60,110 nucleotides of DNA from a bacterium (GCA_046757525.1 JBHHYI010000003.1:1-60110); one strand, 5' to 3'. Positions 23,276-47,250 are shown, numbered from the stretch's first letter. Notes: a model not told the origin generated them from the letters alone. Made by a program: numbers and translations.

Positions 23276-23881
23276 ATGAAACCAAAATTCAATCTATTGG
23301 CCTTATGCCTCATCCTGGCCATTCTCGATCTAAGCTGTAGCAATGACTCAGGCATGAGCAGCAACGTCCTGCCTTTCACGGTGTCCGGCCGCCTGGTGCA
23401 GGTCTCCCAACAAGAAATCCCGTCGGATGCCGAGATCGTGGTGGCCTGGGATGTGGGCGGGTCGCCGGATTATGTTTACATCTTCGGCAAGGGCACCATC
23501 GTCAAAAACGCTGGTACCTTTTCTATTTCGTTCGACGGCAACCCGCCCGCACGTGCGCTCACCGGCGGCGTCCTGGGCGTGGGATTCGTACTGATTACCA
23601 ACAAGGGTGCCTTTAGCAACAACGAAGAGTTTACCGAGGTTCCAACGGAGAATATTTTAGGCGCTGCGGCCAATTACGGGGTCATCTTCGTCAACGAGAG
23701 TCCCAACAAAGCGGCTGCTGACATGGAAAGAGATTGGCTGAAATCATTTAAATCAGGGTACAACGTGGGCAAGGGCATTAAGATCCCGGACGATTTCGAC
23801 GGCTTTGAACCCGTGGACCCCACCACGGTAGAGGTGATCATCGATGACCTTGACAACCTCGAGTTTGTTAATTGGACTTAA
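23276..23881 (+). CDS. Hypothetical lipoprotein
   Basis: Signal peptide with lipobox (LAILDLSCSN) and an RBS AAGGAGG upstream. No known domain recognised. Confidence 0.5.
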   Translation: MKPKFNLLALCLILAILDLSCSNDSGMSSNVLPFTVSGRLVQVSQQEIPSDAEIVVAWDVGGSPDYVYIFGKGTIVKNAGTFSISFDGNPPARALTGGVLGVGFVLITNKGAFSNNEEFTEVPTENILGAAANYGVIFVNESPNKAAADMERDWLKSFKSGYNVGKGIKIPDDFDGFEPVDPTTVEVIIDDLDNLEFVNWT

Positions 23882-23900
23882 TCTGAACGAGGTTTTTGAA

Positions 23901-28116: not shown

Positions 28117-28739
28117 GTTTACCTCCTTTCCGTTTTATTTTAAGATCAAATAAATTTCTAATTGAACCGTTGCAAAAGTCGACGCAAGGTATACCCATCA
28201 AGTCGGCACCCGACCGATGAAAAAAATCGACGGCTTGTTTGGTCTTACGCCGGTTGGGCAAAGCAAGCGCATGCTTGAGGGTCTCTGGACAAAATGCCTG
28301 GACCTGGTGTTTTTAGCTTAAATCAGACACACTGGCCGACCATTTTGAGCTGAACCACAACTCATCACGATCTGAACAAATGTGTTTTTGAACAAAAGAG
28401 GAAAGGAAAATGATAAGGATTTAACTCAGTTTTGGACTCTAATTGGCTCCTCCCTCTCCAATCCTGAATCGAATAAAGTTCGAGCAATTTAATAAAATAA
28501 TAATCTTAAAACAAGAATTAATTACAAAAAGTTAAATATTACTCTTCTCTAACAATGCCAACCACTCTCGGTATTCCAGAAGGACTTGTATAATAGAAAT
28601 AAACTTCGACAGCCTTGCTTAGGGAATCAGGGTCGACCATTGATCCTGTGTGGTATTGTTGGAGCTTGGAATTTTCTTACAAAATATGCAAAAGTTGACG
28701 AGTCACACTATTAGAGCCTCCTCTGGTTCGCACCCGGAG

Positions 28740-30476
28740 TTAATTTTGTCTGGTCAAAGCAACGATCTGTGGGGCCGCTGTAGACTCAGAAGGGTAGTAG
28801 AAATGGAGTTCTAAATATTTCCCCCAGGAACCATGCTCGCCTCTCTTCGTTTGAATCTTGAAGGTCCAAATTCTTTCTTCCTCTCGAATATGGCCTGGGA
28901 AGTTCTCAATGGCTTGCTTGGTTTCACCCTCTAACGACAAATACGGTCGGGCTTTAACAACAAAATAATCGGTCAAATCCTGGTCCCGGTATTTTAGCTT
29001 ATAGCGGTAGTATGTCTGTGCAGCCTTCTCAAACCCTCCCTGGACCGCTAAGTCTACGAATTCAATACCCTGGTGTTCCTCCTCGCCTGGGGTAAAGCGA
29101 AAATCGTCTAACGGATTTACTTTTCCGTACCAATAGCGACCCGTTTTGTCACGACGTTCGACAAGGGTCCTGATCACGTACTCTCTGTCCTGCGGGCGCG
29201 CATATTGTCCTGTCTCGACAATGGCACGAATCTGCTCGTCGGTGAACGACATGACAACTTTGGCGCCCCAAAATTCGTCCAATTCGGTAGCCTTTTGAAA
29301 AGCTGGGTTTGGCACAACAAACTTGTAATTGCCAGGATTGAACAGTCTGGATTCGAAATAGCCCACCGACGGGGTTATGATTTTGGGTTCTTTTTCCCAG
29401 GCACGGACCCAAAGACCCAAGGTAAACATTCTCAACGCAATTTTGCCCAAATCGAATCCCCCTTCATGTCCACGCGAGGTAGGTGCGGGCCCGGTGCCAT
29501 CGCTGCCTAAGGAAGAAGCAAGCCCGGTGATATAATGTCGCAGGAACCGTTTGCCATTTTCGGTCACATACAAATCCAGGGTATTGAGCGCCATGGTATC
29601 GAACAAATTCAACCACGCCGCGATCACCTTGTACCCCCGCAGTTCCCGGCGGTGATGATGAGAAATGTGCTCATTGGCGTCGTCCTTGCGAACGCTGTTG
29701 TACCTGAATGGGCCCACCCGTTCTCCGTGTAAAGATTTCGCAGCCAGGGCTCGATAGGTTCCGTCAGGATTGGGCTCTGCCTGGTCCAATATTTTTCCAA
29801 GGTCCTCATATTTCATTGGAACATTGCGGCCCCAACGATTTCTAATCAACACGTGCTCACCAATGCGGAGTTGCTTGGCGTCGATGGCACACAAATAGGT
29901 TTCCGGAGTGTTGTAGCCAGCGCCGTAGACGAACTTTGTCGCGATGATCTCAGCCGCTGTGTTCAATTGCGGGAATCCCCTGGGGTCAAATCGCAGAATA
30001 TAGACATCCTTTCGACGGTCCTTGATGACAAAGCCCGGGGCCTTGCCCACACCTTTCACACTAATAATGGTGAGAAGTCCGCTCAAGTCAGGACCTGATC
30101 CCCGATTTGGACCGCGTTTAAGCGCCTCCAGGCTCATGGGGTGGGCGCCATTGCGATTAGTAAACCAGGACGAATTGGGGACCTCACCCAAGGCATTTAT
30201 GTTCTTAGCTTGCTTGTGGTGATTTGTGAGTTTGCGAACATGCCAGGTAACATTCACAAACTCATCGATCTCATTTCCAAAAATCTTGTCGATGGCGTCC
30301 CCGTAAAAGCTAACTCGATCTTCTTTGGGTTTGGGAATGTTTTCCGTATCGTTCTCTTCTGTGACGAGAGGCCGCCGGACGTAATATTTTCGAGAAGAAC
30401 AATTCAGGCTGAAACACAGGAGTGGCAAAGCTACGACTGCCACCGACCACCTTCTTTGGTTCAGAATCTCCACCAT
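28740..30476 (-). CDS. Large lipoprotein of unknown function
   Basis: The ATG at 30476 lies 1 nt after the Omp85-family stop. Lipobox LLCFSLNCSS. It carries the conserved-looking segment NALGEVPNSSWFTNR. No domain recognised with confidence. Confidence 0.6.
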   Translation of the reverse strand: MVEILNQRRWSVAVVALPLLCFSLNCSSRKYYVRRPLVTEENDTENIPKPKEDRVSFYGDAIDKIFGNEIDEFVNVTWHVRKLTNHHKQAKNINALGEVPNSSWFTNRNGAHPMSLEALKRGPNRGSGPDLSGLLTIISVKGVGKAPGFVIKDRRKDVYILRFDPRGFPQLNTAAEIIATKFVYGAGYNTPETYLCAIDAKQLRIGEHVLIRNRWGRNVPMKYEDLGKILDQAEPNPDGTYRALAAKSLHGERVGPFRYNSVRKDDANEHISHHHRRELRGYKVIAAWLNLFDTMALNTLDLYVTENGKRFLRHYITGLASSLGSDGTGPAPTSRGHEGGFDLGKIALRMFTLGLWVRAWEKEPKIITPSVGYFESRLFNPGNYKFVVPNPAFQKATELDEFWGAKVVMSFTDEQIRAIVETGQYARPQDREYVIRTLVERRDKTGRYWYGKVNPLDDFRFTPGEEEHQGIEFVDLAVQGGFEKAAQTYYRYKLKYRDQDLTDYFVVKARPYLSLEGETKQAIENFPGHIREEERIWTFKIQTKRGEHGSWGKYLELHFYYPSESTAAPQIVALTRQN

Positions 30477-30477
30477 G

Positions 30478-31794
30478 TCAAAGCTTCCGTAAATCTTCAT
30501 TCAGGGAAAAGGAGAAGCGAATTCCTTCGGATCCTCGGGTGATTTCAACGATGGCCACCAAACCTCCTTTCTTTGAATGGAAGCGAAGGCCACCGCCAAT
30601 AGCGTATTTGAAATCGTGCAAACTAAACCGGTCGAACAGGTCGGAAAACACGCGGCCCTCTTCGCCAAAGCCTACGGCGTCCACCACCGGGTAGATCGGA
30701 AACCGGTACTCAAGGCCGACGACCATGGAGTCGTTGTCGCGAAAGCGGCCAGATCGGAAGCCGCGGAACACGTTTCTACCACCCAAACTGCTCAGTCGAA
30801 AAAATGGCGTCTCTCTGTTGTTAAGGCCGTCTGTAATTTCAGTGCGGGCCCTTAACACCAGCACCCGGTTATAAAACAGGTGGACGTAGCGCCGCAGATC
30901 GAGGATGAACTTTCGATAGCCAAATTCGCTACCGCCGAGCTCCTTGGACAGTTCAAACGAAAAGTACGCCTCGCCGCCCCTGGTGGGGTTGCCCGTGCGG
31001 TTTCTGGAATCGCGATAAATGCTGAATACCAGAGAGCCCATTTCAGCCCCAAACAGACCTGGCACCTCGTCTGGCGAAAATACATCCTGGGTCGAAGGGG
31101 TGCTGGAATCTCGCCCTCTGAAGATGTCTACATTGCTGAAAACAAACCCTAAGCTAAAGATGAACTTCTCAATGAGATTGGACAGGATGGCGATCTGCAA
31201 ATTGCTCTCCCGGTGCAGGTAGTTGGTTTCGTCCTGTTCCGGAGCATGGTTTCCGATGCCAAAAAAATCTTCATCAGGGAGTCTTTGATAGAAGCCTTGC
31301 AGCTCCAGTCCGAACTTGGAAGAGAATAGCCGAGGGTCGATTAAGCCACCGGAGAAGAATCTTCGCGACCTGAGGCCAAAAGTTCCGAGCGCGCGAAAGT
31401 CCAAGCCTTGCTTAGAAAAGTTGTCCTGGATGAAGGTCAGGCCGCCGCCCATGGCAGGTGTAAAAACAGGCCGGACCCGTCTGGTGCCGTCTTCGTTCGT
31501 CAGCAAATCCGTGGTTTTGAGCATCAGGGAATGGACATCGAAAAAACCCGCTGTTTTGCTGGCTCCCAAAAACAGCAATTTCAGCGGGAACACAATAATC
31601 TTACCCGGCAAGGCAACCAAATCTTCAACCAGGCTATCGCCTGTGTCGCGTTCCTCAACTGGGATTTGTTCTTTGGGAATCTCTTTGTCTTTTTTTCTTT
31701 CCTGTGCCCAACTGGACCCTAACAGTGAAATGAGCGTGAAGACGGTCAAGAGAATATTCGGTCGCAAAGGCATGGTCAAATGAATCTGGTGCAA
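30478..31794 (-). CDS. Omp85/BamA-family outer-membrane beta-barrel protein without evident POTRA domains
   Basis: Signal peptide, and only about 100 aa before the barrel. Barrel motifs are LGGRNVFRGFRSGRFRD and a C-terminal GGGLRFHS..GLVAIVEITRGSEG.RFSFSL. Confidence 0.7.
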   Translation of the reverse strand: MHQIHLTMPLRPNILLTVFTLISLLGSSWAQERKKDKEIPKEQIPVEERDTGDSLVEDLVALPGKIIVFPLKLLFLGASKTAGFFDVHSLMLKTTDLLTNEDGTRRVRPVFTPAMGGGLTFIQDNFSKQGLDFRALGTFGLRSRRFFSGGLIDPRLFSSKFGLELQGFYQRLPDEDFFGIGNHAPEQDETNYLHRESNLQIAILSNLIEKFIFSLGFVFSNVDIFRGRDSSTPSTQDVFSPDEVPGLFGAEMGSLVFSIYRDSRNRTGNPTRGGEAYFSFELSKELGGSEFGYRKFILDLRRYVHLFYNRVLVLRARTEITDGLNNRETPFFRLSSLGGRNVFRGFRSGRFRDNDSMVVGLEYRFPIYPVVDAVGFGEEGRVFSDLFDRFSLHDFKYAIGGGLRFHSKKGGLVAIVEITRGSEGIRFSFSLNEDLRKL

Positions 31795-32114: not shown

Positions 32115-32129
32115 TGGTACTATTCTTGC
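32115..32129 (+). promoter_or_regulatory. Sigma-54-type -24/-12 promoter candidate for the 32218-42384 operon
   Basis: TGGTAC-tattc-TTGC has GG and GC at the consensus 12-nt register, with a single mismatch to TGGCAC-N5-TTGC. It lies 90 nt before the first start codon. A hairpin GAGCCGGA..TCCGGCTC sits in the leader. Confidence 0.4.
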
Positions 32130-32217
32130 CTAAGAGGCTGAGCAATTAGCAGTCTGGTGAAATTCACTCAGGCCGTTGGTGGAGCCGGAAGGGAGTCCGG
32201 CTCAAAGTGAAACCTAA

Positions 32218-33957
32218 ATGGGATGCGAGGATTTTATGACAAATAAACCAGGGAGTGGTTTGAAACATCTCGTCACGCGCTTCGTTGCTGCACTTTGCGT
32301 CGTTCACATGGCCTGTACCGCAGCGTGGACCCAAGGGTTAAACGTGTTGAATCCGGCGGACCGAGGCATCCCCTGGACCTCGGAATTCAATCCGGCTGTG
32401 ATTTCATTTCAAGATGCCAAAATCTCCCTGGGTCTGAAGGTGCTGCACCTGGGCTTTGTGCCCGATGCCGCCATCGGTCTGAGTGAAAACCGTTTAAACA
32501 TCAGCCTTCCTTTCTATTTGCCCAACCAGATCGGCGTGGGCCTAGACGTGCGCTATTTTTCCGCTGGTCTGTATTCCGAAGTGGCCGCCGCACTGCTGTT
32601 CAGCAGAGAAATGTTCTACCACTTTTCTTTGGGGACGAAAATTGGTTTGGAGCGCCGCTCCTACAACAAAGACAAGTTCAATGTGGTCGACCCGGACGAC
32701 CCGGTGCTGATTGGAAATCTCGGCGTCAACAGTCTCAATCTCGGCTTTGGCATCTACTGGAATCCAGGCAACCTGGCCTTTGGCGTGGGCGTAGACCATG
32801 CCAACCGCTCCAACATCGGGGTCAAGAGCCGGGCCCTGCTGCCGCAAGAAATTTCTGGTGCAGTCGGTTACAAAATCGGCCTGTTGACACCCACGCTGGT
32901 TGTGCACGCCGACGGCACGCGCACCCGCGTCGGATTTTCCTTGACTGCCGCGCCCACGCAAGCCGGCACCTTCCGATTGGGTTATGAAAGCGGCATGCCG
33001 GTGAAGCTGGAGGCGAGTCTCAACCTTTCTAAAAACAATAACCTGCGTTACGGCATCGACTTGCCTACCGAAGGCACCCGAAAAGCTTCCGTTGGCTCGC
33101 ATGAATTCACCTACAGTCACGTCTTTGCGCGAGAACCCGACATCGCTACCCCCGACCTCTTGCTTTCAACCCGTGAGCTGCGGGTTTTGCAGGAAACCGT
33201 GGTGCGCAGCATGCCGGCAAATCTGGACCTTGAACGCTTGGCTGCGGTTGCGGAACTCACCAACGATTTCGTCTCTCCGGACAGTCGAGCTGAAAATGTC
33301 GTGACGATTTCGGCAGGCGCTCTCAGTCAACACGAAGACCGGGCAGGCCGTCGGGAGCGCTTCACACGGCTTGCGGCGGAGATTTCCAAAATCGTGCAAC
33401 AGAACCCCGATTTGAGACTCCTGCTGCGCACCGATGCCCGTTCAGTGGCAGACGCCCGTCTCTTGAAATATTACCTGCAACGTAAGAACCTGGTGAGCTT
33501 GGACAAGATTCAAATCGTCAAAAGCAGCGCTTCAGGGCCGGCAGACCTTGCCGGGTTCGAACCCGGCCATTTTACCGTGACCCGCAAAAGGCCGCAACTG
33601 TCGGCCAACACTCTGAACATTCGACTGCGCGTGCCTGGTAAAGTGCGCCGCACCAAGAAATGGCAGCTAAAAATATTCGACTCGCGGGGAAAACTGGTCA
33701 ACACTTTTTCCTCTAAAGGCAACCTGCCCGAGATGCTGGTCTGGGACTGGCGGGACCGTCGCGGACATCTGGTGCCCCCTGGCAGGTACGCCTTCCAGGT
33801 GAGGGTTCAGACCAAGAGTGGGAAAATCAAAGTTTCAGATTTACAGCGGGTAACCGTTACGCAGATTCAGCGCACGGTCAAGCTCAAATTCAAAGCCGAA
33901 CCCGTAGAACGAACCAGCGAATCTTTTCGCAAAAGAACAAGCATAAGTGGGCTTTAA
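32218..33957 (+). CDS. Secreted protein: N-terminal beta-barrel-like region (possibly PorP/SprF-like), degenerate OmpA-like segment, C-terminal FlgD-Ig-like domain
   Basis: Signal peptide (alternative ATG at 32236). The first roughly 300 aa have alternating strands ending in aromatic residues. C-terminal WQLKIFDSRGKLV..LVWDWRDRRGHLVPPGRYAFQV is the FlgD-Ig-like pattern. The barrel family assignment is tentative. Confidence 0.5.
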   Translation: MGCEDFMTNKPGSGLKHLVTRFVAALCVVHMACTAAWTQGLNVLNPADRGIPWTSEFNPAVISFQDAKISLGLKVLHLGFVPDAAIGLSENRLNISLPFYLPNQIGVGLDVRYFSAGLYSEVAAALLFSREMFYHFSLGTKIGLERRSYNKDKFNVVDPDDPVLIGNLGVNSLNLGFGIYWNPGNLAFGVGVDHANRSNIGVKSRALLPQEISGAVGYKIGLLTPTLVVHADGTRTRVGFSLTAAPTQAGTFRLGYESGMPVKLEASLNLSKNNNLRYGIDLPTEGTRKASVGSHEFTYSHVFAREPDIATPDLLLSTRELRVLQETVVRSMPANLDLERLAAVAELTNDFVSPDSRAENVVTISAGALSQHEDRAGRRERFTRLAAEISKIVQQNPDLRLLLRTDARSVADARLLKYYLQRKNLVSLDKIQIVKSSASGPADLAGFEPGHFTVTRKRPQLSANTLNIRLRVPGKVRRTKKWQLKIFDSRGKLVNTFSSKGNLPEMLVWDWRDRRGHLVPPGRYAFQVRVQTKSGKIKVSDLQRVTVTQIQRTVKLKFKAEPVERTSESFRKRTSISGL

Positions 33958-33987
33958 ACCAAAACCTCATCAAGAAAACTAAGGAGA

Positions 33988-34902
33988 ATGATTGTGAAGC
34001 CAAACAATCGTAGCTTGCTGAACAAAAGAGGGCTGTTAGCCAGTTTATTTTGCATCTTAGTGCTCATGATTTTCTTGAGCACCACGGCGCAAAGTGTTGG
34101 AAAAAACAAGGGCGCTTCCAATTCCGGGCTTAGAAAGGCCGCTCAAACCGTTCCCACTGAAAATGTGGAGGAAGAATCCGGCCAGCAGGAGATGACAGTT
34201 TGGGACATCATCCAGATGACCGACTGGTTGTTCTGGCCGTTTGTGTTGATCTCTACTGTCGGGGTGCTGCTCATCGTTTTCCGCTCTTTGCTCGAATACC
34301 AGGAGAAAACGCGGGCTCAGAATCTGTTGAATCAACTGGTGCACGTACGCGATATGCGTTCGCTGCAGCGCGCGGTGCACCAAAGTCCCAAGAACCGTGC
34401 CTCGCGATTGTTCAAGCAGATAATTTCTACTTTTAACAAGACCGGACGCGCGGAGCCAATCCGGGAAGAGGCCAATCAGATACTAAATGCAGAACGCGAC
34501 TCCTTTGAAACCTTCAACCGCGTGTTGGGCTTTCTCTCCGACACCGCCGGGGCTCTGGGTTTGTTAGGCACGGTGTGGGGCATCTTTGCAACCTTTCACG
34601 GCGGCAAGCTGGATGGCCCGACGATCTTGCGCGGCATGAGTATTTCGCTGGTGACCACTCTGGTCGGTCTCATCATCAGTTTGATCCTGAACTTTGGCGT
34701 GACCACGGTGTTTGCCATGTTCAACCGACACATTAGCCTACTGTCTTCAAGAGCCGAAGAAGTGCGTCAAGCTTTGCTGAACCTGGAAAAGAATACGCAA
34801 AGACGTCACGTGGAATCCGCCAGAAGAAGGCGTTCGCCCGAGGAAGTGGTTCGCGTCCACGAATATGAAATGGCCGACGACGACAACGGCACCATTCTTT
34901 GA
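33988..34902 (+). CDS. exbB: MotA/TolQ/ExbB proton-channel family protein
   Basis: Three TM helices and the signature DTAGALGLLGTVWGIFATF ... MSISLVTTLVGLIISL. Confidence 0.85.
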   Translation: MIVKPNNRSLLNKRGLLASLFCILVLMIFLSTTAQSVGKNKGASNSGLRKAAQTVPTENVEEESGQQEMTVWDIIQMTDWLFWPFVLISTVGVLLIVFRSLLEYQEKTRAQNLLNQLVHVRDMRSLQRAVHQSPKNRASRLFKQIISTFNKTGRAEPIREEANQILNAERDSFETFNRVLGFLSDTAGALGLLGTVWGIFATFHGGKLDGPTILRGMSISLVTTLVGLIISLILNFGVTTVFAMFNRHISLLSSRAEEVRQALLNLEKNTQRRHVESARRRRSPEEVVRVHEYEMADDDNGTIL

Positions 34903-34928
34903 GCTCCTTCGCAACGCAATCATTGGCC

Positions 34929-35780
34929 ATGAAATACAATACGGTACAACTCAAAAGACTTGCGATTTCACCCGCATTAGGGCTGCTGTTCGCGGCTGGC
35001 ATGACTCTGTTTTTAGCTAAAACTGCTGTCAGCGAAGAACAAGCCTCCAAACAATCGAATGCAGCGGCCACAGTCTGGATTGACGATTCGCAAACTCAGC
35101 TCGTCGAAGGCACCCAATTCGACGTCAACATCCTGATCGGTACCGAATTAGCTCCGGTCACCGGACTTTTTGGACTCAGCTTCGAGCTGCACTATTCCGA
35201 CGACAAGTACTTTGAATTCATCGATCCCGTTGAAGCGGTGTCCGGTGCCTTTCTGGAGCCGGACACCTACACTTTTACCCGACACGAGCCTGAGAACAAG
35301 GTGTTCTTTCTGGCAGTGAGTCGCAAACGGGGGGCAGCGGGCCAAAGCGGGTACGGCCTGGTTCTGAGCTTGACGATCCAACTGAAGCAAGACGTCCCCG
35401 TGGGTTGGCAGACCTGTTTTGAAATCACCAACGTTTCTGCCAACGATTCGGTTGGCGCAAGCATTGCCGTGGAGGCCGGTTCAGAGGTCTGCTTCAATGC
35501 TGAAGAGCCGGCCATCGAGGTGATTCCCAACCCGTTCACGCCCAACGGGGACGGCTCCAACGACGCGGTTGAATTCAAGAGAGAAGGCGGCATCCCGGAG
35601 GATTGGACGATCCTGATCATGGACCGAGCGGGTCGAATCATTCGCCGCTTGACCGGTGGCCAGGACTTCTGGGACGGGCACGACCAGCAAGGACGCCTGA
35701 TGCTGCCCGGCACCTATCTTTACACGGTCAACGACCACAGCCGGCTGGCCAAACGCGGGCTGTTATGGCTGATTCTTTAG
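34929..35780 (+). CDS. Cohesin-like domain protein with CHU_C / T9SS type-B-like C-terminal domain
   Basis: Signal peptide; cohesin-like FDVNILIGTELAPVTGLFGLSFELHYSDDKYFEF; C-terminal NPFTPNGDGSNDAVEF .. ILIMDRAGRII .. WDGHDQQGRLMLPGTYLY. Confidence 0.55.
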   Translation: MKYNTVQLKRLAISPALGLLFAAGMTLFLAKTAVSEEQASKQSNAAATVWIDDSQTQLVEGTQFDVNILIGTELAPVTGLFGLSFELHYSDDKYFEFIDPVEAVSGAFLEPDTYTFTRHEPENKVFFLAVSRKRGAAGQSGYGLVLSLTIQLKQDVPVGWQTCFEITNVSANDSVGASIAVEAGSEVCFNAEEPAIEVIPNPFTPNGDGSNDAVEFKREGGIPEDWTILIMDRAGRIIRRLTGGQDFWDGHDQQGRLMLPGTYLYTVNDHSRLAKRGLLWLIL

Positions 35781-35802
35781 TGGCAACTCATGCGCTTCAA
35801 GC

Positions 35803-38304
35803 ATGGAGGATTTGAACATGAGGAACAATTCTGAATCGATTGCGAAAATGAGAGCTGGCAAGAATCTTTTGAGCAGGTCTCTGAGGCTTCCTTTAATCTG
35901 GCTGGCTGGGCTGCTGCTGATGGGTTTCTCGATCTTGCTGCCTGGAACGAATTCAGTAAAAGCGTGGCCCGGCGGCAACGAGGGTGCAACCCCACAACTG
36001 GCTACGGCCCTGCAATCCGTCAAATTAGAATACAACCAAATTGACGCCTCCGGATTCACCCAAATCGTTTCGTTCGTCACCGTCTCAGATGATTCCGGAC
36101 TCACCATTGGCGGTCTCACCAAAGACAATTTTGAAGTGCGTGAAGATTCGGTGCGGGAATTGCCCATCGACGTGGTGGAGATTTCCAACGCCGCCGAAGG
36201 CGTTACCGTGGCCCTGGTTCTGGACCGCAGCGGCAGCATGCAAGGCCAACCGATCCAGGATGCCAAGACCGCGGCTTCCGGTTTCGTGCAATTGCTGCAG
36301 GACCAGGATCAGGCGGCTTTGGTGAGCTTCAACAATTTTGTCACCACCGATCAGGGTTTCACCAGCGACAAGAACGCGTTGACCGCGGCGATCCAGGCTC
36401 TGCAAGCCTTTGGGGGCACAGCGATTTACGACGCAGTCATTCAAGCTGCCGATCTCATAGAACCGCAGGAAGGCCGAAAGGCGATCATCCTCCTGACCGA
36501 CGGCAAGGACACCAATAGCAAGAATTCTTTCCAGACTGCTTTGAACCGCGCCAAAGAAATCAATGTGCCCGTTTTCACCATTGGCCTGGCGCTCAGCCCG
36601 GGGAGTCCGGAAGAAAACGTGCTGATAACTCTGGCTAACGACACCGGCGGCCGCTATTTTCGCAGTGCCAGCTCCAGCGACTTGCAGGCCATTTATTCTG
36701 CCATTGCCGCGTTGTTGTTTCAACAATACCGCATCACTTACACAACTCACAATCCGACCACCGATGGTTCCTTGCGCCATGTGAAAATCGATGTGCAATA
36801 CCAGGGATTCGCCAGTTACGATACGGCGTCCTACCGGGCCCCGGACCACGTGGTCACCATTGCAGCAACTACTACGGACCAGGTCAACCCGGGCCGGACC
36901 TTTACGATCAACCTGGAAATTCCACCAAGCAGCAAGTTTCTCTTTCACAAAATGAAGAACCTGCACGCTATACTACAATACGATCCTACGTATCTAAAGG
37001 TGAAACAGACCTTTGACCAAAACATCGATGCCGGTGCCTTGTTTGGCGCGGACACCGAACACACCTTGACGTTCAACGTCGACGAGGCCAACGGGGTCAT
37101 TACTTTAGACCTGACCAAAGATCCCAATTCGGGTCTGATTGAGGGACGAGGGCAATTGGCAGCCATCACCTTTGAAGCCGCTGCTGATCTGCCGGACAGC
37201 ACACGGCTGCAGTTCGACATCATCGATCATCTTGCCAGCGATATCAACGACTGGCCTATCGCTACCCGGGTCGAAAATCTCACGCTTTACAGCTACGGCA
37301 ACATCGTCTGGCCCGGAGACACCAATGAAAACGGGAAAGTGGAGCTTACCGACGTCACGGTGCTCGGGGTCTACTGGAATATCGATGGGGACGGACGTCC
37401 CACCGAGCCCGATCCTCTGCGCTGGAAGTCGCAGCTCGCCGGCCATTATCCGGTCAGAGTGGCAGCGCATGCCGACGCCGACGGCAACGGCAACGTGAGC
37501 GAGCAAGATTTGATTCCCATCGGTTTGAATTGGGGCAAAACCACCGATTCCCCGGACACGACCACACAGCCCGTGCTTCTTCCCAAAAGCCAACCGCAAG
37601 GCACTCTAAGCCTGGCAGTTTCGTCCACAGGAGAGTCCGGGGTGTACACCGTGAAGTTGAGGTACGAAAGTTCTCAGCCGGAACAACTGTGTGGTGCCAT
37701 GCTGCGCCTGCGCTACCCCAAAGGCCAACTGGAAATCGCGCAAGTGCAGCCCGGCAAAGACTGGCCGGGGCAGCCCTTGTTTATTTCGTCTAACGACCAG
37801 GCCAGGGCGTTGCTGGCCGCCGGGGTCATGCTCACGGCCGGCTCTCCGCTACTGCGCGGCAGCGGGGAAATCGCCCAATTCGTGGTTCATTCCGACTCGG
37901 AACCCGACTTGCAAGAGCTGATTTTTGAGAAGGTGGGCGTGGTTACACCCGATGGCACCTTACACGAATTGACCGTAGAAAACGCCTCCAATAGCAGCGA
38001 CCAGGCGGCAAAATCCTTTGTCTTGTTTCCGGCCTATCCCAATCCGTTTAATCCCGCGACGCGACTGCGTTTTGCGTTACCTGAGGCCGGCGAAGTAGAG
38101 GTGCACATTTACAATGTGACCGGCCGCCTGGTCGTAAAATCGGAGCGGCAATCGTTCGAAGCTGGCGAACACTCCTGGGGCTGGGATGGCCGGGACCAGA
38201 ACGGCAGTTCTGTGAGCAGCGGCATCTATTTCGTTCGGGTGCTGGCCACCACACCGGATGGCAAAAAATGGAGCAGCCAGCAAAAAATCACCATGATGAA
38301 ATAA
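35803..38304 (+). CDS. VWA-domain surface protein with cohesin-like and dockerin-like modules and a T9SS type-A-like C-terminal domain
   Basis: VWA MIDAS motif (LVLDRSGSMQG .. GGTAIYDA .. ILLTDGKDT). Cohesin-like FTINLEIPPSS..AILQYDPTYLKV. Two EF-hand-like dockerin loops, DTNENGKVELTD and DADGNGNVSEQD. The C-terminal tail is YPNPFNPATRLRFALPEAGEVEVHIYNVTGRLV..WGWDGRDQNG..SGIYFVRV. Confidence 0.7.
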   Translation: MEDLNMRNNSESIAKMRAGKNLLSRSLRLPLIWLAGLLLMGFSILLPGTNSVKAWPGGNEGATPQLATALQSVKLEYNQIDASGFTQIVSFVTVSDDSGLTIGGLTKDNFEVREDSVRELPIDVVEISNAAEGVTVALVLDRSGSMQGQPIQDAKTAASGFVQLLQDQDQAALVSFNNFVTTDQGFTSDKNALTAAIQALQAFGGTAIYDAVIQAADLIEPQEGRKAIILLTDGKDTNSKNSFQTALNRAKEINVPVFTIGLALSPGSPEENVLITLANDTGGRYFRSASSSDLQAIYSAIAALLFQQYRITYTTHNPTTDGSLRHVKIDVQYQGFASYDTASYRAPDHVVTIAATTTDQVNPGRTFTINLEIPPSSKFLFHKMKNLHAILQYDPTYLKVKQTFDQNIDAGALFGADTEHTLTFNVDEANGVITLDLTKDPNSGLIEGRGQLAAITFEAAADLPDSTRLQFDIIDHLASDINDWPIATRVENLTLYSYGNIVWPGDTNENGKVELTDVTVLGVYWNIDGDGRPTEPDPLRWKSQLAGHYPVRVAAHADADGNGNVSEQDLIPIGLNWGKTTDSPDTTTQPVLLPKSQPQGTLSLAVSSTGESGVYTVKLRYESSQPEQLCGAMLRLRYPKGQLEIAQVQPGKDWPGQPLFISSNDQARALLAAGVMLTAGSPLLRGSGEIAQFVVHSDSEPDLQELIFEKVGVVTPDGTLHELTVENASNSSDQAAKSFVLFPAYPNPFNPATRLRFALPEAGEVEVHIYNVTGRLVVKSERQSFEAGEHSWGWDGRDQNGSSVSSGIYFVRVLATTPDGKKWSSQQKITMMK

Positions 38305-38320
38305 ACTAAGGACAGGCATT

Positions 38321-38725
38321 ATGGGCAAAGGCAGTTTGATGATTCGAATGATCGACATCGTGTTTATCCTGCTGTTTGGGTTTATCGCGGTCTCACAAAT
38401 CAGCACGGCCAAATCGATTGAGCCCCCCAAGAGCAGCGAGGCCACCGACGCTGCGCCGGAAGGCACGCGCATCATCATCGTTGGGGTGCAAAAGGACGGT
38501 ACCTTCCCAATTGACGCCGGGGATATCGTGTTCGAGAAACAGAGCAAGTTGCAGGAATATTTGGCGGAAGCCGCTTACCAAGCCCAAAACAGCGGCGAAA
38601 AATTGGGCGTGCGCATTCGCGCAAACTGGGATTCACCGCTGGAATACAGCATGGCCGTGGCCAAAATGTGCAAGCGTCTCGGCATCCCCAAAGGCCTGGA
38701 TGTGGTCAAGATCACTTCGCTTTAG
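38321..38725 (+). CDS. exbD: ExbD/TolR family protein 1
   Basis: N-terminal MIRMIDIVFILLFGFIAVS TM signature and a periplasmic alpha/beta domain. Confidence 0.85.
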   Translation: MGKGSLMIRMIDIVFILLFGFIAVSQISTAKSIEPPKSSEATDAAPEGTRIIIVGVQKDGTFPIDAGDIVFEKQSKLQEYLAEAAYQAQNSGEKLGVRIRANWDSPLEYSMAVAKMCKRLGIPKGLDVVKITSL

Positions 38726-38736
38726 GAGGCAAGCTC

Positions 38737-39132
38737 ATGAACCAGAATCGTTTGATGATTCGCTTGATCGACGTCGCTTTGCTCATATTGCTTGGTTTCA
38801 TTGCCATCAGTCGTCTGAAAACCGAATACGTGGACTTACCCGCGGGTGGGAAAAACGCCCCTGAGATGAATCGAACTCAGAAAGCCACCCTCCATATTTA
38901 CCGCAACAAGTTCATCTTTGTAGACCACGGAAGAAAGAAAAGCCTGAAGAATCTGCCGGATTTGGAAGCTGCGCTGGTGAACCGGAAGAATCGTTACGAA
39001 CGTCGGCACGTGAAGCTGGTCGTCAATATTGAACCGCAAAAGTCCAGCATCATTCAAAATCTAATCGATGTTCTGGATATTTGTCAACGGAACCAAATTG
39101 AAAAGAATCTCGATTATGACAGCTTTAACTGA
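38737..39132 (+). CDS. exbD: ExbD/TolR family protein 2
   Basis: AGGAGG RBS then the ATG at 38737; MNQNRLMIRLIDVALLILLGFIAIS TM signature. Confidence 0.85.
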   Translation: MNQNRLMIRLIDVALLILLGFIAISRLKTEYVDLPAGGKNAPEMNRTQKATLHIYRNKFIFVDHGRKKSLKNLPDLEAALVNRKNRYERRHVKLVVNIEPQKSSIIQNLIDVLDICQRNQIEKNLDYDSFN

Positions 39133-40192
39133 ATACATTTCCAGCAAAGACAACCTGCTACCCATCTCCGCAATGTTGACAGGAGGCTTCCTGCTCCTGA
39201 TTTTCGCGCTGGCACAGATATTGGCCTACACCACCTTCAAACCGGAACCGCTGCAAAAAAAGCTGGAAATCCGCGAACTGGTTAAATTGAGTTTTAAGCC
39301 CAAAGGCACGAAAACGCCGCGCAACAACTTCTTGAAACGAAACAAGAGCCTGGACCGGCCGAAAGCAAAGGTCAGCAAGGTCGAGCAGCCACAGGCGCGA
39401 CCGACGCGACCCACTGTGGACGTGGCGGCGTTGATGCAGGGTTTGCAAAAAAACCAGCTTATTTCCAGGAAAAATTCCACGAACCGCAAATCAGCAAGGC
39501 CAAATGTGCAACAGGTAGCGGCCATCAGCACCAGTCACTCGCGCACCGCCGAGGAGGTCGACCTCAACAGCTTGCTCAGTGACCTGTCCAATCGGCCCTC
39601 CTCGTTTACAGCCGGACGGAAAGCGGTTTCAGGCGGCACGCAAGGTCCCGTGGTAAGCGTAGGCGGGGGCCCCTCAGCCGGCAGCGTTTCCAACGTTGAC
39701 GGCAGCGCCCTTGCCGGGCGGGCAACGGTGCGCACCAGCCGCTCCAGTGGTACGGGCAGCGGCGGCCCCACCATTTCGCTGCCCGCGGGTTCTCCGGACG
39801 GCGGCGATGCTGCCCTCGACTTGCACGCCCTCATCAAATGGATGAAAGAACATCCGGGCGCCATTCCCAAATTGGTGCAGCACGAAATGGGTCACGCAGC
39901 CGGCGACCTCGCTTCGGCTGCAACCTTCAAGGCCAACAATCGAACCTACCACCTCTACCTGTCCTGCAATGAGGTGGAGCTGCTCCTGCGAATCTGTTTA
40001 GTTGAAGAAAACAAATTCACCTTGCTCAAAGATAACGGCATACGTGAAGAAAGCAATTATCTCACCGTTGGAGATGTGGTAAGAAACAACGGAAAAATTC
40101 AATCGCTCATTAGCTCACGGAAAGCTCCAGAACACAAAGCCGCAGCGTTTTACAGTATTTTCTGGAGCTGGTGGCAACAACAACTCCGCTGA
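39116..40192 (+). CDS. Membrane-anchored protein in the TonB position (basic/Pro-rich linker, Ser/Gly-rich region, non-canonical C-terminal domain)
   Basis: The ATG at 39116 overlaps the exbD2 end. It has one TM (AMLTGGFLLLIFALAQILAY), then a K/R/P-rich stretch (KPKGTKTPR..RPKAKVSKVEQPQARPTRP), then a low-complexity S/G region. The last roughly 110 aa lack the TonB_C motifs I know. Confidence 0.45.
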   Translation: MTALTEYISSKDNLLPISAMLTGGFLLLIFALAQILAYTTFKPEPLQKKLEIRELVKLSFKPKGTKTPRNNFLKRNKSLDRPKAKVSKVEQPQARPTRPTVDVAALMQGLQKNQLISRKNSTNRKSARPNVQQVAAISTSHSRTAEEVDLNSLLSDLSNRPSSFTAGRKAVSGGTQGPVVSVGGGPSAGSVSNVDGSALAGRATVRTSRSSGTGSGGPTISLPAGSPDGGDAALDLHALIKWMKEHPGAIPKLVQHEMGHAAGDLASAATFKANNRTYHLYLSCNEVELLLRICLVEENKFTLLKDNGIREESNYLTVGDVVRNNGKIQSLISSRKAPEHKAAAFYSIFWSWWQQQLR

Positions 40193-40266
40193 GTCCGAGG
40201 GTCAGGGTTACCTGCTTTATTTTAGACAACTTAAAACTATTAATCATTAGAATCGAGGAAGGCTCT

Positions 40267-41733
40267 ATGGTAAAAAAACGCCGCACATTCAGTGTATTTT
40301 CACTGGCTTTGTTATTAGCTCTGAGTCTGGGTTGCGCTTCGTCGGGCAAGCGAACCCGTCTGTCCATGCGAGTGCCCCCCGGCCTTGACAGCACCATGGT
40401 GGTCTACTCTTCAAGACTGGCTGACAACAATTTCGTCTCTTCCAAACGAGAGCGCGAGGCCAAACGGGCCGCTGAAGCGGGCAAAGAAAATCTGAACCGG
40501 GTCGATGAGTTTTGGGCTTATTTAGAACAGCGGGTGGGCAAAAGTAGCACTTTGTCCGGCGCAGACCAAGCTCAGTTCGACCGCGAACTGAGCCAGGGTG
40601 CGCAGGCGCTTGCCACCTGGAAGAAACTGACCAAGAATGGCCAGGACGAAAACGCCAGCGAGGCGGCCTGGAATTATTGCCTCCAAGCGCAAAAACATTT
40701 GGAGGAGGCGGTACGGATTAATCCATTTGACAAAAACAGCCGCATGCTCCTGTCGGTTGTCTATTACTACTTGCAGAATATTTTTGGCAAGCAAGGCAAT
40801 TACCAGAAGGCCGTCGACGTCCTCGAACGGCTGGTCCGTATTGAAAAGGGCGAGCACGAACTCTTTCGCCTGTTGGCCGAAAACTACCAGGCCCTGGGCA
40901 AATACGATCTGGCTTTGAACAATTTCAAGAGGGCTTTGGCGGTCCTGATCAAAACCAGCTTCGCGGCCCCGCCCGATACCAGCATGATCTACTACTACAC
41001 GTACGCTCAGGGAGATGTTTACGCGCGCATGTACGACGCGGTGCATGCCATCAAAACGTTCAAGGTGGCCAAATCCATCGCCCGCACCGAGCAAGAAAAG
41101 AGCGATGTGGACAACTACCTAAAATGGATTAGCTGGGACGGGGGTAACATCCGGGCCTCAGAGCAGTGGGACAAGATATTAGCTTTCGAATCCTCCAAGG
41201 ACTACCCGAAAATGGTAAACGCCTGCAAAAAACTGTTGCCGGCACTGACGACGACCAAGGCGAAATTGAACGTGCAACATAAACTGGCGGTGGTCGAGTT
41301 TGAAATCTTAGGCCAACAAGCCCGGGCTGTCGAACGCATGCGCCGGGTTTTTGACCTGCTGCCCAGAAACAAGCTGCGTTCAGGGGACCCACAGATTCAG
41401 CCAATTTTGGACTCCTACGGTGCCATGCTGTACCGATTGGGCGTCGAGGCCATGGAAAAGCAAGACAAGAAAGTGGCGCTGGCTTATTTTAACAAAGCGG
41501 TCTCATTCGATTGGAATCAAATCGGCAAAGCCTATTTTGAGCTGGTCACCTTGTTGTGGAACGATCCGGACCAGGCCATTCAATTCGGCAAGAAAGCTTT
41601 GGCCAGCAATAGCGGACTTTCAAACGAAGAATCGTGCGAATTGATGTCTTTGATGACCAAAGCGCACAAGAGCGCCGGCCGTTACGATGAGGCCAGAAAA
41701 TATTACAACAAGTGGAAACAATGCCAGGAGTAG
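40267..41733 (+). CDS. TPR-repeat lipoprotein
   Basis: MVKKRRTFSVFSLALLLALSLGCASSG lipoprotein signal and several 34-aa TPR-like units (e.g. LLAENYQALGKYDLALNNFKRAL). Confidence 0.7.
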   Translation: MVKKRRTFSVFSLALLLALSLGCASSGKRTRLSMRVPPGLDSTMVVYSSRLADNNFVSSKREREAKRAAEAGKENLNRVDEFWAYLEQRVGKSSTLSGADQAQFDRELSQGAQALATWKKLTKNGQDENASEAAWNYCLQAQKHLEEAVRINPFDKNSRMLLSVVYYYLQNIFGKQGNYQKAVDVLERLVRIEKGEHELFRLLAENYQALGKYDLALNNFKRALAVLIKTSFAAPPDTSMIYYYTYAQGDVYARMYDAVHAIKTFKVAKSIARTEQEKSDVDNYLKWISWDGGNIRASEQWDKILAFESSKDYPKMVNACKKLLPALTTTKAKLNVQHKLAVVEFEILGQQARAVERMRRVFDLLPRNKLRSGDPQIQPILDSYGAMLYRLGVEAMEKQDKKVALAYFNKAVSFDWNQIGKAYFELVTLLWNDPDQAIQFGKKALASNSGLSNEESCELMSLMTKAHKSAGRYDEARKYYNKWKQCQE

Positions 41734-41736
41734 ACC

Positions 41737-42384
41737 ATGACAAAGATCAAGAAATATCGATTGCTTGCGCTATTATCCATCTTAACCTTGTTGCTGTTTC
41801 TCGCTGGCCTGGCGCATGCACAGACGGCGGGCATTTCGGTTGACCAGTCTCTGGTGCAGTCCGTTACGGTGAAAAACAAGAGGTTGGTGAAGTTTTTCAC
41901 GGAAGATTTTATGATTCCTGAGAAACAGGTTGCCTGGCTCAAGATTTACGATCTCAGCGGCGATGGCTTTGGCAACGGCGACCTGGCGCGCACCTTTCCC
42001 GGCGGCAAGATTTATCTGATCACCCCAGGAGAAAAGGCGCAAAGCCTTATGAACAAATGGAGCTTTGGCGGCAACATCAAGTTCACGGCCAACTCGACGG
42101 ATAGTCCCGCGTTGTTTGAACAGGCTCCCGATTCTGTACGCGCCATGGGCGGCATATTTGCTGCACTACTAAAAGGCCTGCGCCGCAACTACAAAGGACT
42201 GCCCATAAAACTTTTTCTCGAACAGAATGACAACGTGACCGCCGTACAAATGTGGGGCTATAATCCCCAATTGATGCAATACCAGCCCGCGCCCGTGGCG
42301 AAAATGCCCGTAGAAAAACCAGTAATGAAATTGATCTACCTGGAAAAAACAGTCGTGGACAGCGTACTTTATACGCCAAAATAG
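41737..42384 (+). CDS. Secreted hypothetical protein (last gene of the operon)
   Basis: Signal peptide ending in LAHAQ; starts 3 nt after the TPR gene stop. No known domain recognised. Confidence 0.5.
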   Translation: MTKIKKYRLLALLSILTLLLFLAGLAHAQTAGISVDQSLVQSVTVKNKRLVKFFTEDFMIPEKQVAWLKIYDLSGDGFGNGDLARTFPGGKIYLITPGEKAQSLMNKWSFGGNIKFTANSTDSPALFEQAPDSVRAMGGIFAALLKGLRRNYKGLPIKLFLEQNDNVTAVQMWGYNPQLMQYQPAPVAKMPVEKPVMKLIYLEKTVVDSVLYTPK

Positions 42385-42410: not shown

Positions 42411-43100
42411 TCAAAAATTGGTCGAGGAAAAATTTTGAGTTACGTAAAGGGTGTTGAGGTGTCTAAATTCACTTTCCACGCAGCCCACGCCAAGATATTT
42501 GAAATACGGACTCAAAATATTTTCGCGGTGCGGCGGGCTGTCCATCCAACGTTCTACCAAAGCCGCAGCAAATTCATGATAGGTGTAGGGCACGCCTTGA
42601 TTCCGCCAGACATACCGATGCGCAACAATCTCCACTTGCGCTGGGTTGAAAACGATGGATAGGCGCCTGGTGATGGGATGAATGGCGATGTTTTCCCCGC
42701 CAAAGCCGTTACGTATGCCCACGTGCTGCAGTCGCTTCTTGATAGTTTTGTTGGTTGGGTTTGGCGAGACGTGGTCAAAATATCGCAACTGCACCATCTC
42801 TTCCGAATGCAAACGCGCGGCTTCGTGAAGTCGAAAGTTGTATCGTAGATCGCCCAGTCCCAACCTTTCTCTCTGGTAATTGGTTTCCTTAAAAATCGCC
42901 CAATCCAATAGTTCCAGATTTATCGAGTCAGGCTTGATTTCGGCCGTCTTGATGTACTCTCCTGCGTTCCCTTGCTCAAACTGCTCAAACAGGTCGCGTT
43001 TGTACTTCCACTCCGACCCGCACGAGACCGAAAGAACTGCACCTACCACGATTAAGAGAAACGTAACCCGCTTTGGGGACCATATCGCTGCTTGTGCCAT
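42411..43100 (-). CDS. CAP/SCP (PR-1-like) domain lipoprotein
   Basis: The ATG at 43100 gives MAQAAIWSPKRVTFLLIVVGAVLSVSCGS (lipobox). CAP motifs are LHEAARLHSEEM..YFDH .. GGENIA .. VERWMDSPPHRENIL. Confidence 0.7.
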   Translation of the reverse strand: MAQAAIWSPKRVTFLLIVVGAVLSVSCGSEWKYKRDLFEQFEQGNAGEYIKTAEIKPDSINLELLDWAIFKETNYQRERLGLGDLRYNFRLHEAARLHSEEMVQLRYFDHVSPNPTNKTIKKRLQHVGIRNGFGGENIAIHPITRRLSIVFNPAQVEIVAHRYVWRNQGVPYTYHEFAAALVERWMDSPPHRENILSPYFKYLGVGCVESEFRHLNTLYVTQNFSSTNF

Positions 43101-43587
43101 GGTTCTTCCATATTGCAGAAAAGGCCAATCCGGAACGTGATCCGAATTGCGCCAATAAGTGTTTTCAGTTCTCCAACCGCTGACTACCGGACTAAAGGTC
43201 AAGGAGGTGTCGCCGGAATAGAGTGTGAGATCCCCGTAGGCGCGGTAATCTTTTTCCAGCAAGGTCGTAGTGGCGTTTGGATTGTCCCATGAGGATGACG
43301 TTTTTGCCAGCAAGTTGTTACTTAATATGCTGGACCAGCAAAGCCGCCGCGGCGAGATTTGGCCTGGTGCACCAAGCAGATGAATTCCTGGCCGCAGCCA
43401 TCGACCGTCACCTGCAACAGGTCCCGGCTACTCCGAAAAGCTTCGTCGTATTTACTTCGGAAACACATATTTGAAAGATTTTATTTCAAACGGAGACTGG
43501 ACCGCCAGAGCCATTTCCTGACCCTCAACCGGAGCGTCACTCTCTGGCCACACTCAAAATACAGCCCCTTCTTTAACAGCGCGTTTG

Positions 43588-47222: not shown

Positions 47223-47250
47223 TGGACGAGGTTAAACAGATGTCTCTGAT

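Follow-up and report, generated by a model that had tools for sequence, protein, structure and literature searches.

The DNA analysed was a stretch of 60,110 nucleotides from a bacterium (GCA_046757525.1 JBHHYI010000003.1:1-60110; hereafter the window). The element described here is a cassette of nine co-directional open reading frames (ORFs), g1 to g9, on its plus strand at 32218-42384 (Table 1), in which the genes of an ExbB/ExbD-type motor are linked to those of a putative outer-membrane (OM) carrier and of surface proteins. The cassette is real, conserved and, as far as can be told, undescribed, and it can be placed in the class of envelope force-transduction systems driven by the proton-motive force (PMF; Ton/Tol/Agl-Glt-like). 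Start codons were adjusted against homologs and database gene calls. The distances between successive genes from g1 to g9 were 30, −4 or 26 (for the two candidate starts of g3), 22, 16, 11, −17, 74 and 3 nt, in agreement with a preliminary description of the locus as nine co-directional genes that overlap once and otherwise lie no more than 74 nt apart; g6 and g7, which share 17 nt here, also overlap in homologous loci, by 16-17 nt. The feature had been made to start at 32115, which lies about 100 nt upstream of the first ORF and out of frame with it, a trivial discrepancy. The domain assignments made in that description (a barrel, MotA_ExbB, two ExbD, VWA, Cohesin, and the type-A and type-B C-terminal domains (CTDs) of type IX secretion systems (T9SS)) were borne out by Pfam and NCBIfam scores above cut-off, PorP_SprF in the case of the barrel.

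Table 1. Coordinates of the cassette genes, their flanking genes and the surface-signalling unit in the window.
Feature	Position	Strand	Description
g1	32218..33957	+	PorP/SprF-type barrel with periplasmic extension; database-called start 32236
g2	33988..34902	+	ExbB/TolQ-family stator subunit
g3	34899 (TTG) or 34929 (ATG)..35780	+	Signal peptide, cohesin-like domain, T9SS type-B CTD
g4	35803..38304	+	VWA, cohesin, dockerin-like and type-A CTD protein
g5	38321..38725	+	ExbD/TolR paralog 1
g6	38737..39132	+	ExbD/TolR paralog 2; ORF listing start 38668, homologs (130-135 aa) point to 38737
g7	39116..40192	+	Inner-membrane-anchored, TonB/TolA topology
g8	40267..41733	+	Tetratricopeptide repeat (TPR) lipoprotein
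g9	41737..42384	+	Secreted 215-aa protein, unrecognised fold
Omp85-family gene	30478-31794	-	Upstream flank, divergent to g1
CAP-domain gene	42411-43313	opposite strand	Downstream flank
Extracytoplasmic function (ECF) sigma factor	17003-17593	+	Surface-signalling unit 17003-24692
FecR anti-sigma	18679-19674	+	Surface-signalling unit
TonB-dependent receptor (STN + CarboxypepD_reg + Plug)	19599-22394	+	Surface-signalling unit
DUF4249 protein	23844-24692	+	Surface-signalling unit

Three of the genes encode stator subunits. g2 is a divergent ExbB/TolQ protein with an N-terminal signal-like extension (MotA_ExbB, 53.8 bits, E 2.2e-14; Pfam); it carries the motif GLLGTVWGI, and its top sequence matches in the PDB were ExbB (6ye4) and TolQ (8odt). 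g5 and g6 were both matched by ExbD (Pfam; 45 bits, E 1.4e-11 and 44.6 bits, E 1.9e-11, respectively), and both paralogs kept the transmembrane (TM) aspartate (R[LM]ID[IV]) in every genome examined. The top NCBIfam matches of g2, g5 and g6 were TolQ/TolR rather than ExbB/ExbD, all of them far below cut-off. A Zorya-type defence system was considered and rejected, as a PADLOC scan gave only generic MotA/ZorA similarity.

The g1 protein was assigned to PorP_SprF (PF11751; 52.6 bits, cut-off 22.3, E 6.5e-14; Pfam). It consists of a barrel (residues ~60-325) followed by a C-terminal extension of ~270 residues, which in an AlphaFold2 (AF2) model forms an alpha/beta domain at ~355-430 (predicted local distance difference test score, pLDDT, 73-85) and an FlgD/CTD-like Ig beta-sandwich at ~446-551 (pLDDT >90). 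Porin-like barrels were among the Foldseek matches of the model, in which the barrel is of low confidence. The Ig domain resembles FlgD (3osv, Foldseek probability 1.0), so that the FlgD-Ig-like end proposed in the preliminary description stands even though the FlgD_ig hidden Markov model (HMM) scored below cut-off. Homology of this sandwich (residues 446-551; nt ~33553-33870) to those in the CTDs of g3 and g4 was also detected (hhalign probability 95, E ~1e-8), with a common core of the form W..I.D..G..V...WDG.D..G..V..G.Y; the PNPF start of the CTDs is missing from g1. The Ig domain may be a CTD mimic or simply an FlgD-type handle. No useful PDB match was obtained for the alpha/beta domain by Foldseek or for the g1 profile by sequence search, and the alignment of the g1 family shows no conserved cysteine in its last 250 residues, where SprF has a twin-cysteine tail. 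g1 is predicted to be the carrier for g3, a type-B CTD protein.

Two cargo genes lie between the ExbB gene and the first ExbD gene. g3 was matched by CHU_C (PF13585; 41.6 bits, cut-off 27, E 1.4e-10) and by the type-B CTD model TIGR04131 (39.9 bits, cut-off 35). CHU_C matched all members of the g3 family (33/33) and Pfam Cohesin matched 7 of the 33 weakly. The N-terminal domain of g3 is homologous to the cohesin of g4 (hhalign probability 97.7, E 1.6e-12), and with TIGR04131 above cut-off the earlier assignment of g3 as a cohesin-like protein with a type-B-like CTD was upheld. A PDB sequence search with g3 gave no useful match. g3 is predicted to serve as an anchor or adaptor held by g1.

The g4 protein is composed, in order, of a signal peptide, an Ig-like domain, a VWA domain, a cohesin (residues 354-465), a double calcium loop, a beta-rich region and a type-A CTD (residues 745-816). 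The VWA domain (80.5 bits; TIGR03436, 126.5 bits) has a complete metal-ion-dependent adhesion site (MIDAS; D141, S143, S145, T206 and D233) that is invariant in the alignment. The cohesin was matched by PF00963 (45.1 bits, cut-off 24.1) and the CTD by Por_Secre_tail (34.7 bits) and the type-A model TIGR04183 (41.3 bits). The VWA, cohesin and type-A CTD modules attributed to g4 were thus recovered; the dockerin-like loops were found to be invariant but with an HMM score under the threshold (given below), and a second cohesin-like module (residues ~595-740) was not supported (hhalign probability 26). The two calcium loops (residues 506-517 and 558-569; DTNxNGxVELxD and DADGSGxVxExD) are invariant in five homologs of 40-44% identity, and the linker between the repeats is unusually long. 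Homologs of g4 have an ordinary cleavable signal peptide and a C-terminal T9SS CTD and are not lipoproteins. g4 would be surface-exposed, because of this signal peptide and CTD, and is predicted to be the head of the adhesin.

A fusion in another genome bears on how g3 and g4 may be joined. At L007:10001-11308, residues 67-347 of g4 (56% identity, E 5e-98) are joined to residues 202-292 of g3, its type-B CTD (53% identity, E 7e-34). Because one lineage fuses the VWA head to a type-B CTD, the cohesin of g3 would be expected to pair with the dockerin of g4, in place of the covalent link of the sister lineage; the fusion is the strongest, though indirect, evidence at hand for this pairing. Since g4 has a cohesin as well as a dockerin-like segment, its copies might, as a speculation, also assemble head to tail into chains.

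The g7 protein occupies the position of the force transducer. It consists of an N-terminal TM helix, a linker of ~190 residues, rich in G, S, R and K and predicted to be disordered, and a highly conserved CTD of ~125 residues. The TM helix carries S18-x3-T22 with a conserved serine, and a histidine is missing from the window protein and most of its homologs and present only in the L037-type sub-lineage described below. No Pfam or NCBIfam family matched g7. The family has 108 close members; a profile search of 1.84 billion representative proteins gave 156 clusters at E<=1e-10, and Pfam scans of the longer fusion proteins of the family found no further domains. In the AF2 model (pLDDT 85-92) the CTD begins with two helices, continues as an antiparallel meander of six strands and ends in a long helix; Foldseek against the PDB gave no match at E<0.05 and none to the TonB or TolA domains. 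A TonB/TolA fold was therefore rejected on both the AF2 topology and the Foldseek result, and PDB sequence matches of g7 to the linkers of single-chain variable fragments were discarded as low-complexity and spurious. The designation of g7 as TonB-like holds for its position and topology and fails for its CTD, and g7 is predicted to be a force transducer.

g8 carries the lipobox LSLGC and gave only generic matches to TPR families (Pfam, NCBIfam). Judged by bit score, it ranks with the most strongly conserved proteins of the constant frame defined below (E-values of 1e-164 to 1e-204 among relatives and of 2e-85 to 1e-100 at distant loci). g9 is strongly conserved (64% mean column identity in the alignment, motif YDLxGDGFGEGD) and is always encoded last. 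No family scored above cut-off for g9 (a chance-level match to Vps16_C in Pfam reached 19.4 bits against 21) and no PDB sequence match was obtained. g7, g8 and g9 are essentially confined to the context of the cassette.

Conservation of the cassette was examined with a g7 profile in one genome per GTDB species, and all ORFs of the loci were scored against the nine window proteins. The scan gave 27 loci, all in metagenome-assembled genomes (MAGs) and labelled KSB1, Zhuqueibacterota, Calditrichaeota or Caldithrix. A few loci carried the labels Cytophagia, Deferribacteres, Bacteroidetes or Phycisphaerae, which are probably mis-assignments. A single 29,941-bp contig was found deposited in two MAGs, labelled KSB1 in one and Phycisphaerae in the other (L026 and L027), and is a binning or labelling duplicate. 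In all, the arrangement recurs in about 25 genomes at species level; an exact look-up of the g4 sequence returned no contig. Within the reach of the contigs, all loci had the order g1-ExbB-[cargo]-ExbD-ExbD-g7-g8-g9 on one strand, with the L037-type lineage as the exception. Loci retrieved through g3 homologs in MAGs of KSB1 and Calditrichaeota likewise had the nine genes in the order of the window, among unrelated neighbours. The L037-type order is g1-g3-g4-small Ig protein-ExbB-g7-g8-g9, with no ExbD nearby; its ExbB is another protein, of the canonical kind (Pfam E 3e-35), and the TM helix of g7 has a histidine as in TonB. The g7 CTD, g8, g9, g1, g3 and g4 are retained in this lineage.

The cassette thus has a constant frame, made of g1, ExbB, ExbD1, ExbD2, g7, g8 and g9, and a cargo that varies in content and position. 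Type I cargo, as in the window, consists of g3 and one or two copies of g4, some with an extra cohesin. Type II cargo (L007/L017, L022-L025 and L034) consists of one to three proteins with VWA and a type-B CTD (~435-476 aa) and a DUF3344/SdrD_B/type-A CTD protein of ~657 aa. Both types fill the slot between exbB and exbD.

Two observations were made on individual loci of this group. At L007 1-3940, and also in L009, the type II cassette lies downstream of genes for an ECF sigma factor, an anti-sigma factor (zf-HC2) and a 776-aa protein with VIT and VWA, which may be a dedicated regulatory input of the type II variant; no counterpart of this set was found upstream in the window. In the MAG JACKDF01 (L005/L018; 7021-8807 and 14207-14383), g1 is split into two ORFs and ExbD1 is a 58-aa call, and in a near-identical contig of another assembly (L006) both genes are intact. 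The broken genes are due either to an error (in the assembly or as a frameshift) or to decay within one of the populations.

Distant contexts were read with HMMs built for the nine families. Relatives at g7 E-values of 1e-27 to 1e-45 keep g1-ExbB-ExbD-ExbD-g7-g8-g9. One of them (L038) has, in order, a TPR gene, a 1057-aa FG-GAP/CARDB/Ig protein with a type-B CTD, a g1-like gene (E 1e-59), ExbB, ExbD, ExbD, g7, g8 (E 2e-85) and g9. In another (L043), whose contig begins within g1, the seven genes are contiguous, and a third (L041) has a g1-type C-terminal end, ExbB, a 230-aa Ig-like protein (Big_1/Invasin_D3), ExbD, ExbD and g7. In every locus with a visible cargo region, the frame goes together with a surface protein, which is a type-B CTD protein in all but L041, where the cargo is Ig-like and no CTD was detected. 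The interleaved order exbB-[cargo]-exbD, on which the preliminary description had laid weight, is conserved in the main group and in L041 but is not essential, since exbB-exbD-exbD is contiguous in L038 and L043; interleaving is one of at least two arrangements.

The recurrence of motor and surface genes together was the decisive neighbourhood test, and the linkage proved to be co-conserved in two candidate phyla and in the distant relatives. A recent chance insertion of the surface genes was rejected, as the order is conserved across loci with unrelated flanks. It is very unlikely that the genes are merely co-located without physical coupling of their products, whether as a co-regulated set or as a mobile block. 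The flanks do differ between genomes, as a mobile block would show, but they hold no genes for mobility. Moreover, the seven genes of the frame stay together at the g7 distances given above while the identity and position of the cargo change, and g7, g8 and g9 occur essentially only in this context. Because the frame stays together while the cargo changes, selection would act on the combination of genes.

A further locus points to a possible contact between components. At L040 10001-15910, a 1330-aa CarboxypepD_reg protein with two tandem g7-type CTDs is followed by a 110-aa stand-alone copy of that domain, and the next gene encodes a 439-aa protein with the alpha/beta and Ig domains of the g1 extension. 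STAND/AAA genes lie upstream and no ExbB/ExbD was found nearby, so that the two domain families are put to another use there. Because both occur together in this locus, outside a motor context, there is a hint that the g7 CTD and the periplasmic domains of g1 are binding partners.

The closest described counterpart of g1 and g3 is the carrier-substrate pair of the T9SS. Type-B substrates stay surface-bound on their own PorP/SprF-like carrier (PMC9143113; PMC12635249), and SprF is driven mechanically from the periplasm via a C-terminal tail that is disulfide-bonded to the GldK track (PMC12635249). The locus holds a PorP/SprF-family barrel, a type-B CTD and linkage of the two genes, and a g1-type carrier and a type-B CTD gene lie within the same cassette in every complete locus, adjacent to each other in L038. 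SprB/SprF of Flavobacterium johnsoniae and PG1035/PorP of Porphyromonas gingivalis are likewise pairs in which a PorP/SprF-family barrel gene is linked to a type-B CTD gene, and the earlier reading had missed that g1 and g3 form this established type of pairing. The cassette differs from SprB/SprF in that g1 has the alpha/beta and Ig extension of ~270 residues and not a short twin-cysteine tail. The carrier pair sits in an ExbB/ExbD operon and does not, as far as visible, rely on GldLM-GldKN, and the adhesin head would be attached via cohesin-dockerin modules. The hosts are of the KSB1/Calditrichota type and not Bacteroidota.

These differences have a bearing on a reading in which the motor does not work on the mature adhesin but provides the energy to secrete or insert g3 and g4, through g1 or together with it, and does so as a lineage-specific stand-in for the GldLM/PorLM-PorKN energy chain or by a T9SS-independent route. 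The energy-requiring step of the Bacteroidota T9SS is the ejection of carrier-substrate complexes from the translocon (PMC12635249), g1 has a large periplasmic module in place of the GldK-linking tail of SprF, and the cargo bears both type-A and type-B CTDs. However, the same genomes also encode type-A CTD proteins elsewhere, without such motors (for example a CotH and Por_Secre_tail protein in L003), which suggests that the hosts have a general T9SS. The export reading overlaps with one of the output modes of the mechanism that we favour below. We consider it an unlikely explanation on its own.

The Bacteroidota exbB-exbD-exbD-tonB-TPR operon has the same order of ExbB, two ExbD with the TM aspartate, a single-pass linker protein and a TPR protein. 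The cassette differs in having no TonB_C domain, no TM histidine (SHLS) and no TonB-dependent receptor, and in the nesting of surface-protein genes among those of the motor. No TonB_C, Plug or TonB-dependent receptor domain was detected in the nine proteins with Pfam or NCBIfam, and the only TonB-dependent receptor of the window lies 12 kb upstream, in an ECF/FecR unit. The view that this is not a plain nutrient-uptake Ton system is therefore sustained. Bacteroidota Sus-like systems couple surface capture proteins to energised barrels. By analogy with these, the VWA/cohesin complex could capture a ligand that the motor imports through the g1 barrel, and an ExbB/ExbD motor, a protein of TonB topology and an OM barrel are indeed encoded in one operon. 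Against such uptake, beside the missing Ton domains, stand the type of g1, which is that of a PorP/SprF carrier, and that of the cargo (VWA, FG-GAP/CARDB, Ig-like), which is adhesin-like and does not consist of substrate-binding lipoproteins. Uptake is accordingly held to be highly improbable.

The preliminary description also drew a parallel with the Agl-Glt gliding apparatus of Myxococcus xanthus, in which the exposure of the VWA adhesin CglB is coupled to the motor (PMC9946355; PMC11761067). Both have a TolQ-like and two TolR-like proteins, TM-anchored transducers with long disordered stretches in the periplasm, TPR proteins, OM barrels and a VWA adhesin. No orthology was found beyond the generic motor and the VWA and TPR folds, and no cytoplasmic platform genes of Agl-Glt were found in the window. 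Unlike g7, GltG and GltJ end in TonB-CTD-like domains. The lipoprotein CglB is bound by GltABHK, and g4 would instead be a T9SS substrate attached via cohesin-dockerin and a type-B CTD. The parallel survives in the logic of the parts, but the defining features of Agl-Glt are absent and it should be read as an analogy only.

Williams-Jones et al. (2025; PMC12204202) proposed force transducers with a vWA domain that are encoded beside TPR-tolQ-tolR-tolR, and the cassette parallels the TPR-tolQ-tolR-tolR-vWA loci proposed there. In those transducers, the VWA is C-terminal on an inner-membrane TM helix and linker with SHLS, whereas g4 starts with a cleavable signal peptide and ends in a T9SS CTD, and the transducer g7 bears another, unclassified domain. 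As in cellulosomes, a cohesin is present on a cell-anchored protein and a putative two-calcium-loop dockerin on the attached protein; the cassette differs in that the passenger is a VWA adhesin and not an enzyme, in that there is one cohesin per anchor, and in that g4 bears both modules. A precedent in the FCB group is the CTD-anchored scaffoldin inferred in Cloacimonadota (PMC8542988).

VWA and TPR genes also occur together in Bat/aerotolerance operons. This identity was rejected for the cassette, as such operons have no ExbB/ExbD and no T9SS modules.

The preliminary description knew of no described system with such an architecture, and none was found in the literature. No account of the cassette was found in work on PorP with ExbB/ExbD, on KSB1/Zhuqueibacterota, on T9SS or gliding in Calditrichota, on cohesin/dockerin with T9SS, or on gliding with VWA and a motor. 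The KSB1/Zhuqueibacterota genome paper does not mention secretion or motility, and a paper on the cellulose-adhesion proteome of Fibrobacter describes an ordinary TonB/ExbBD cluster, different from the cassette.

The reading we favour is that the motor acts physically on the g1-adhesin complex, so that the cassette would give one T9SS type-B carrier-adhesin complex an energy chain of its own, driven by the PMF; judged from sequence, this reading stands about an even chance of being right. The cassette would be akin to a hybrid of the T9SS type-B carrier/adhesin pair with a Ton/Tol-type 5:2 motor and its force transducer. In the inner membrane, ExbB (g2) and a heterodimer of the ExbD proteins g5 and g6 would form a Ton/Tol-type 5:2 stator, the stoichiometry being taken from known ExbB/TolQ structures. 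g7 would sit beside the stator via its single TM helix, with its ~190-residue linker able to span the periplasm. On the OM's inner side, the g7 CTD, aided by g8 and g9, would grip the alpha/beta and Ig extension of g1, which lies at the end of the protein that is periplasmic in SprF (PMC12635249). At the cell surface, g1 would hold the type-B CTD of g3, following the PorP/SprF carrier rule, and binding of the g3 cohesin to the g4 dockerin would mount the VWA (MIDAS) head on the carrier. Motor strokes would then pull on or displace g1. This could serve to draw the carrier and its cargo out of the secretion pore, to move both laterally, or to place the adhesin under load, for the control of adhesion or for traction of a gliding-like kind.

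A bolder form of this proposal is possible but doubtful: the cassette may be a self-contained third kind of adhesin-traction or gliding apparatus beside the GldLM track and Agl-Glt, in which the stator pulls the carrier via the CTD of g7, as a new class of transducer domain working with g8 and g9, and in which the heads are interchangeable, being held covalently or by cohesin-dockerin pairing. As to the energised adhesin system envisaged in the preliminary description, the linkage of motor and surface genes is conserved, and the function is still inferred.

Several observations weigh against, or limit the case for, a motor-driven carrier-adhesin complex. The Dockerin_1 match of g4 (PF00404; 20.3 bits) is just under the cut-off of 22.9, and g1 scored 66.1 bits against TIGR03519, below the cut-off of 90.55 for the PorP subfamily (NCBIfam). 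The g1 barrel had a pLDDT below 50 in the AF2 model, for which the alignment held only 8 sequences. None of SprA/Sov, PorV and GldK/L/M/N, which the export of g3 and g4 needs, was found among the 60-kb window genes, only the window having been inspected. A scan of the locus for promoters and terminators was uninformative, with no excess of either and FCB promoters outside its coverage. Finally, a very distant motor module (L042 4106-8857), made of ExbB, one ExbD, g7, g8 and a 564-aa protein with the g9 domain as its N-terminal third, adjoins NamZ, nucleotidyltransferase and kinase genes of the N-acetylmuramic acid (MurNAc)/peptidoglycan-recycling type, with no carrier or cargo visible. The ancestral role of g7-g8-g9 may have been envelope-related rather than adhesin-related.

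The last locus, beside peptidoglycan-recycling genes and devoid of cargo, also speaks for a Tol-Pal-like role in envelope maintenance, in which g2, g5 and g6 would act as TolQ/TolR, g7 as a TolA analogue, g8 as a CpoB-like protein and g1 as the mobilised or tethered partner, with the surface proteins as passengers. Likenesses to Tol-Pal are the TolQ/TolR-like best matches of g2, g5 and g6 (far below cut-off, as stated above), the TolA-like topology of g7, and a TPR lipoprotein encoded after the transducer, as proposed for ancestral CpoB (PMC12204202), which may recall CpoB but gave only generic TPR matches. The cassette differs in having no TolB, no Pal/OmpA_C and no TolA domain III, and in the presence of a T9SS carrier and cargo. 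Neither a TolB beta-propeller nor Pal/OmpA_C was detected in the nine proteins (Pfam, NCBIfam), the g7 CTD does not have the TolA/TonB fold, and a PorP/SprF-type partner and type-B CTD cargo, for which a housekeeping system has no need, are encoded wherever visible except in L041. A maintenance role of this kind is regarded as rather improbable.

The surroundings of the cassette were also inspected. Its two immediate neighbours are both on the opposite strand and unrelated to it. On the minus strand of the window (27028-31794), two large ORFs, of 586 aa and 362 aa and unmatched in Pfam, come before the Omp85 gene, and in L001 the matching upstream position is held by a 588-aa transglutaminase-core protein. 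Also in L001 (684-4457), a TIR-STAND (NACHT/TPR) protein and a DUF433/DUF5615 pair adjoin the cassette; these are defence or toxin-antitoxin-like and unrelated. About 3 kb downstream of the cassette in the window (45720-48897, minus strand) lie genes for a Cache/HAMP/SpoIIE (PP2C) membrane phosphatase and then a GAF-sigma54 activator with HTH_8, which make up a signalling pair. Rfam and tRNA scans of the window gave no matches. The surface-signalling unit (Table 1) is an ordinary Bacteroidota-style TonB-dependent unit, for which the organism must also rely on a conventional TonB from elsewhere in its genome.

How inner-membrane motors deliver force to OM carriers is an open question in T9SS and gliding research, and the sole worked example, the SprF-GldK track, dates from 2025. 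The cassette offers a compact alternative of seven frame genes and cargo, in which synteny names the motor, the transducer, the carrier and the adhesin. It also provides a first functional context for three uncharacterised families (the g7 CTD, the g8 TPR lipoprotein and g9) and widens the diversity of TonB/TolA-like force transducers. Cohesin-dockerin modules would here carry an adhesin in place of enzymes. In ecological terms, the cassette points to energised attachment of the uncultured KSB1/Zhuqueibacterota and Calditrichota to particles or surfaces.

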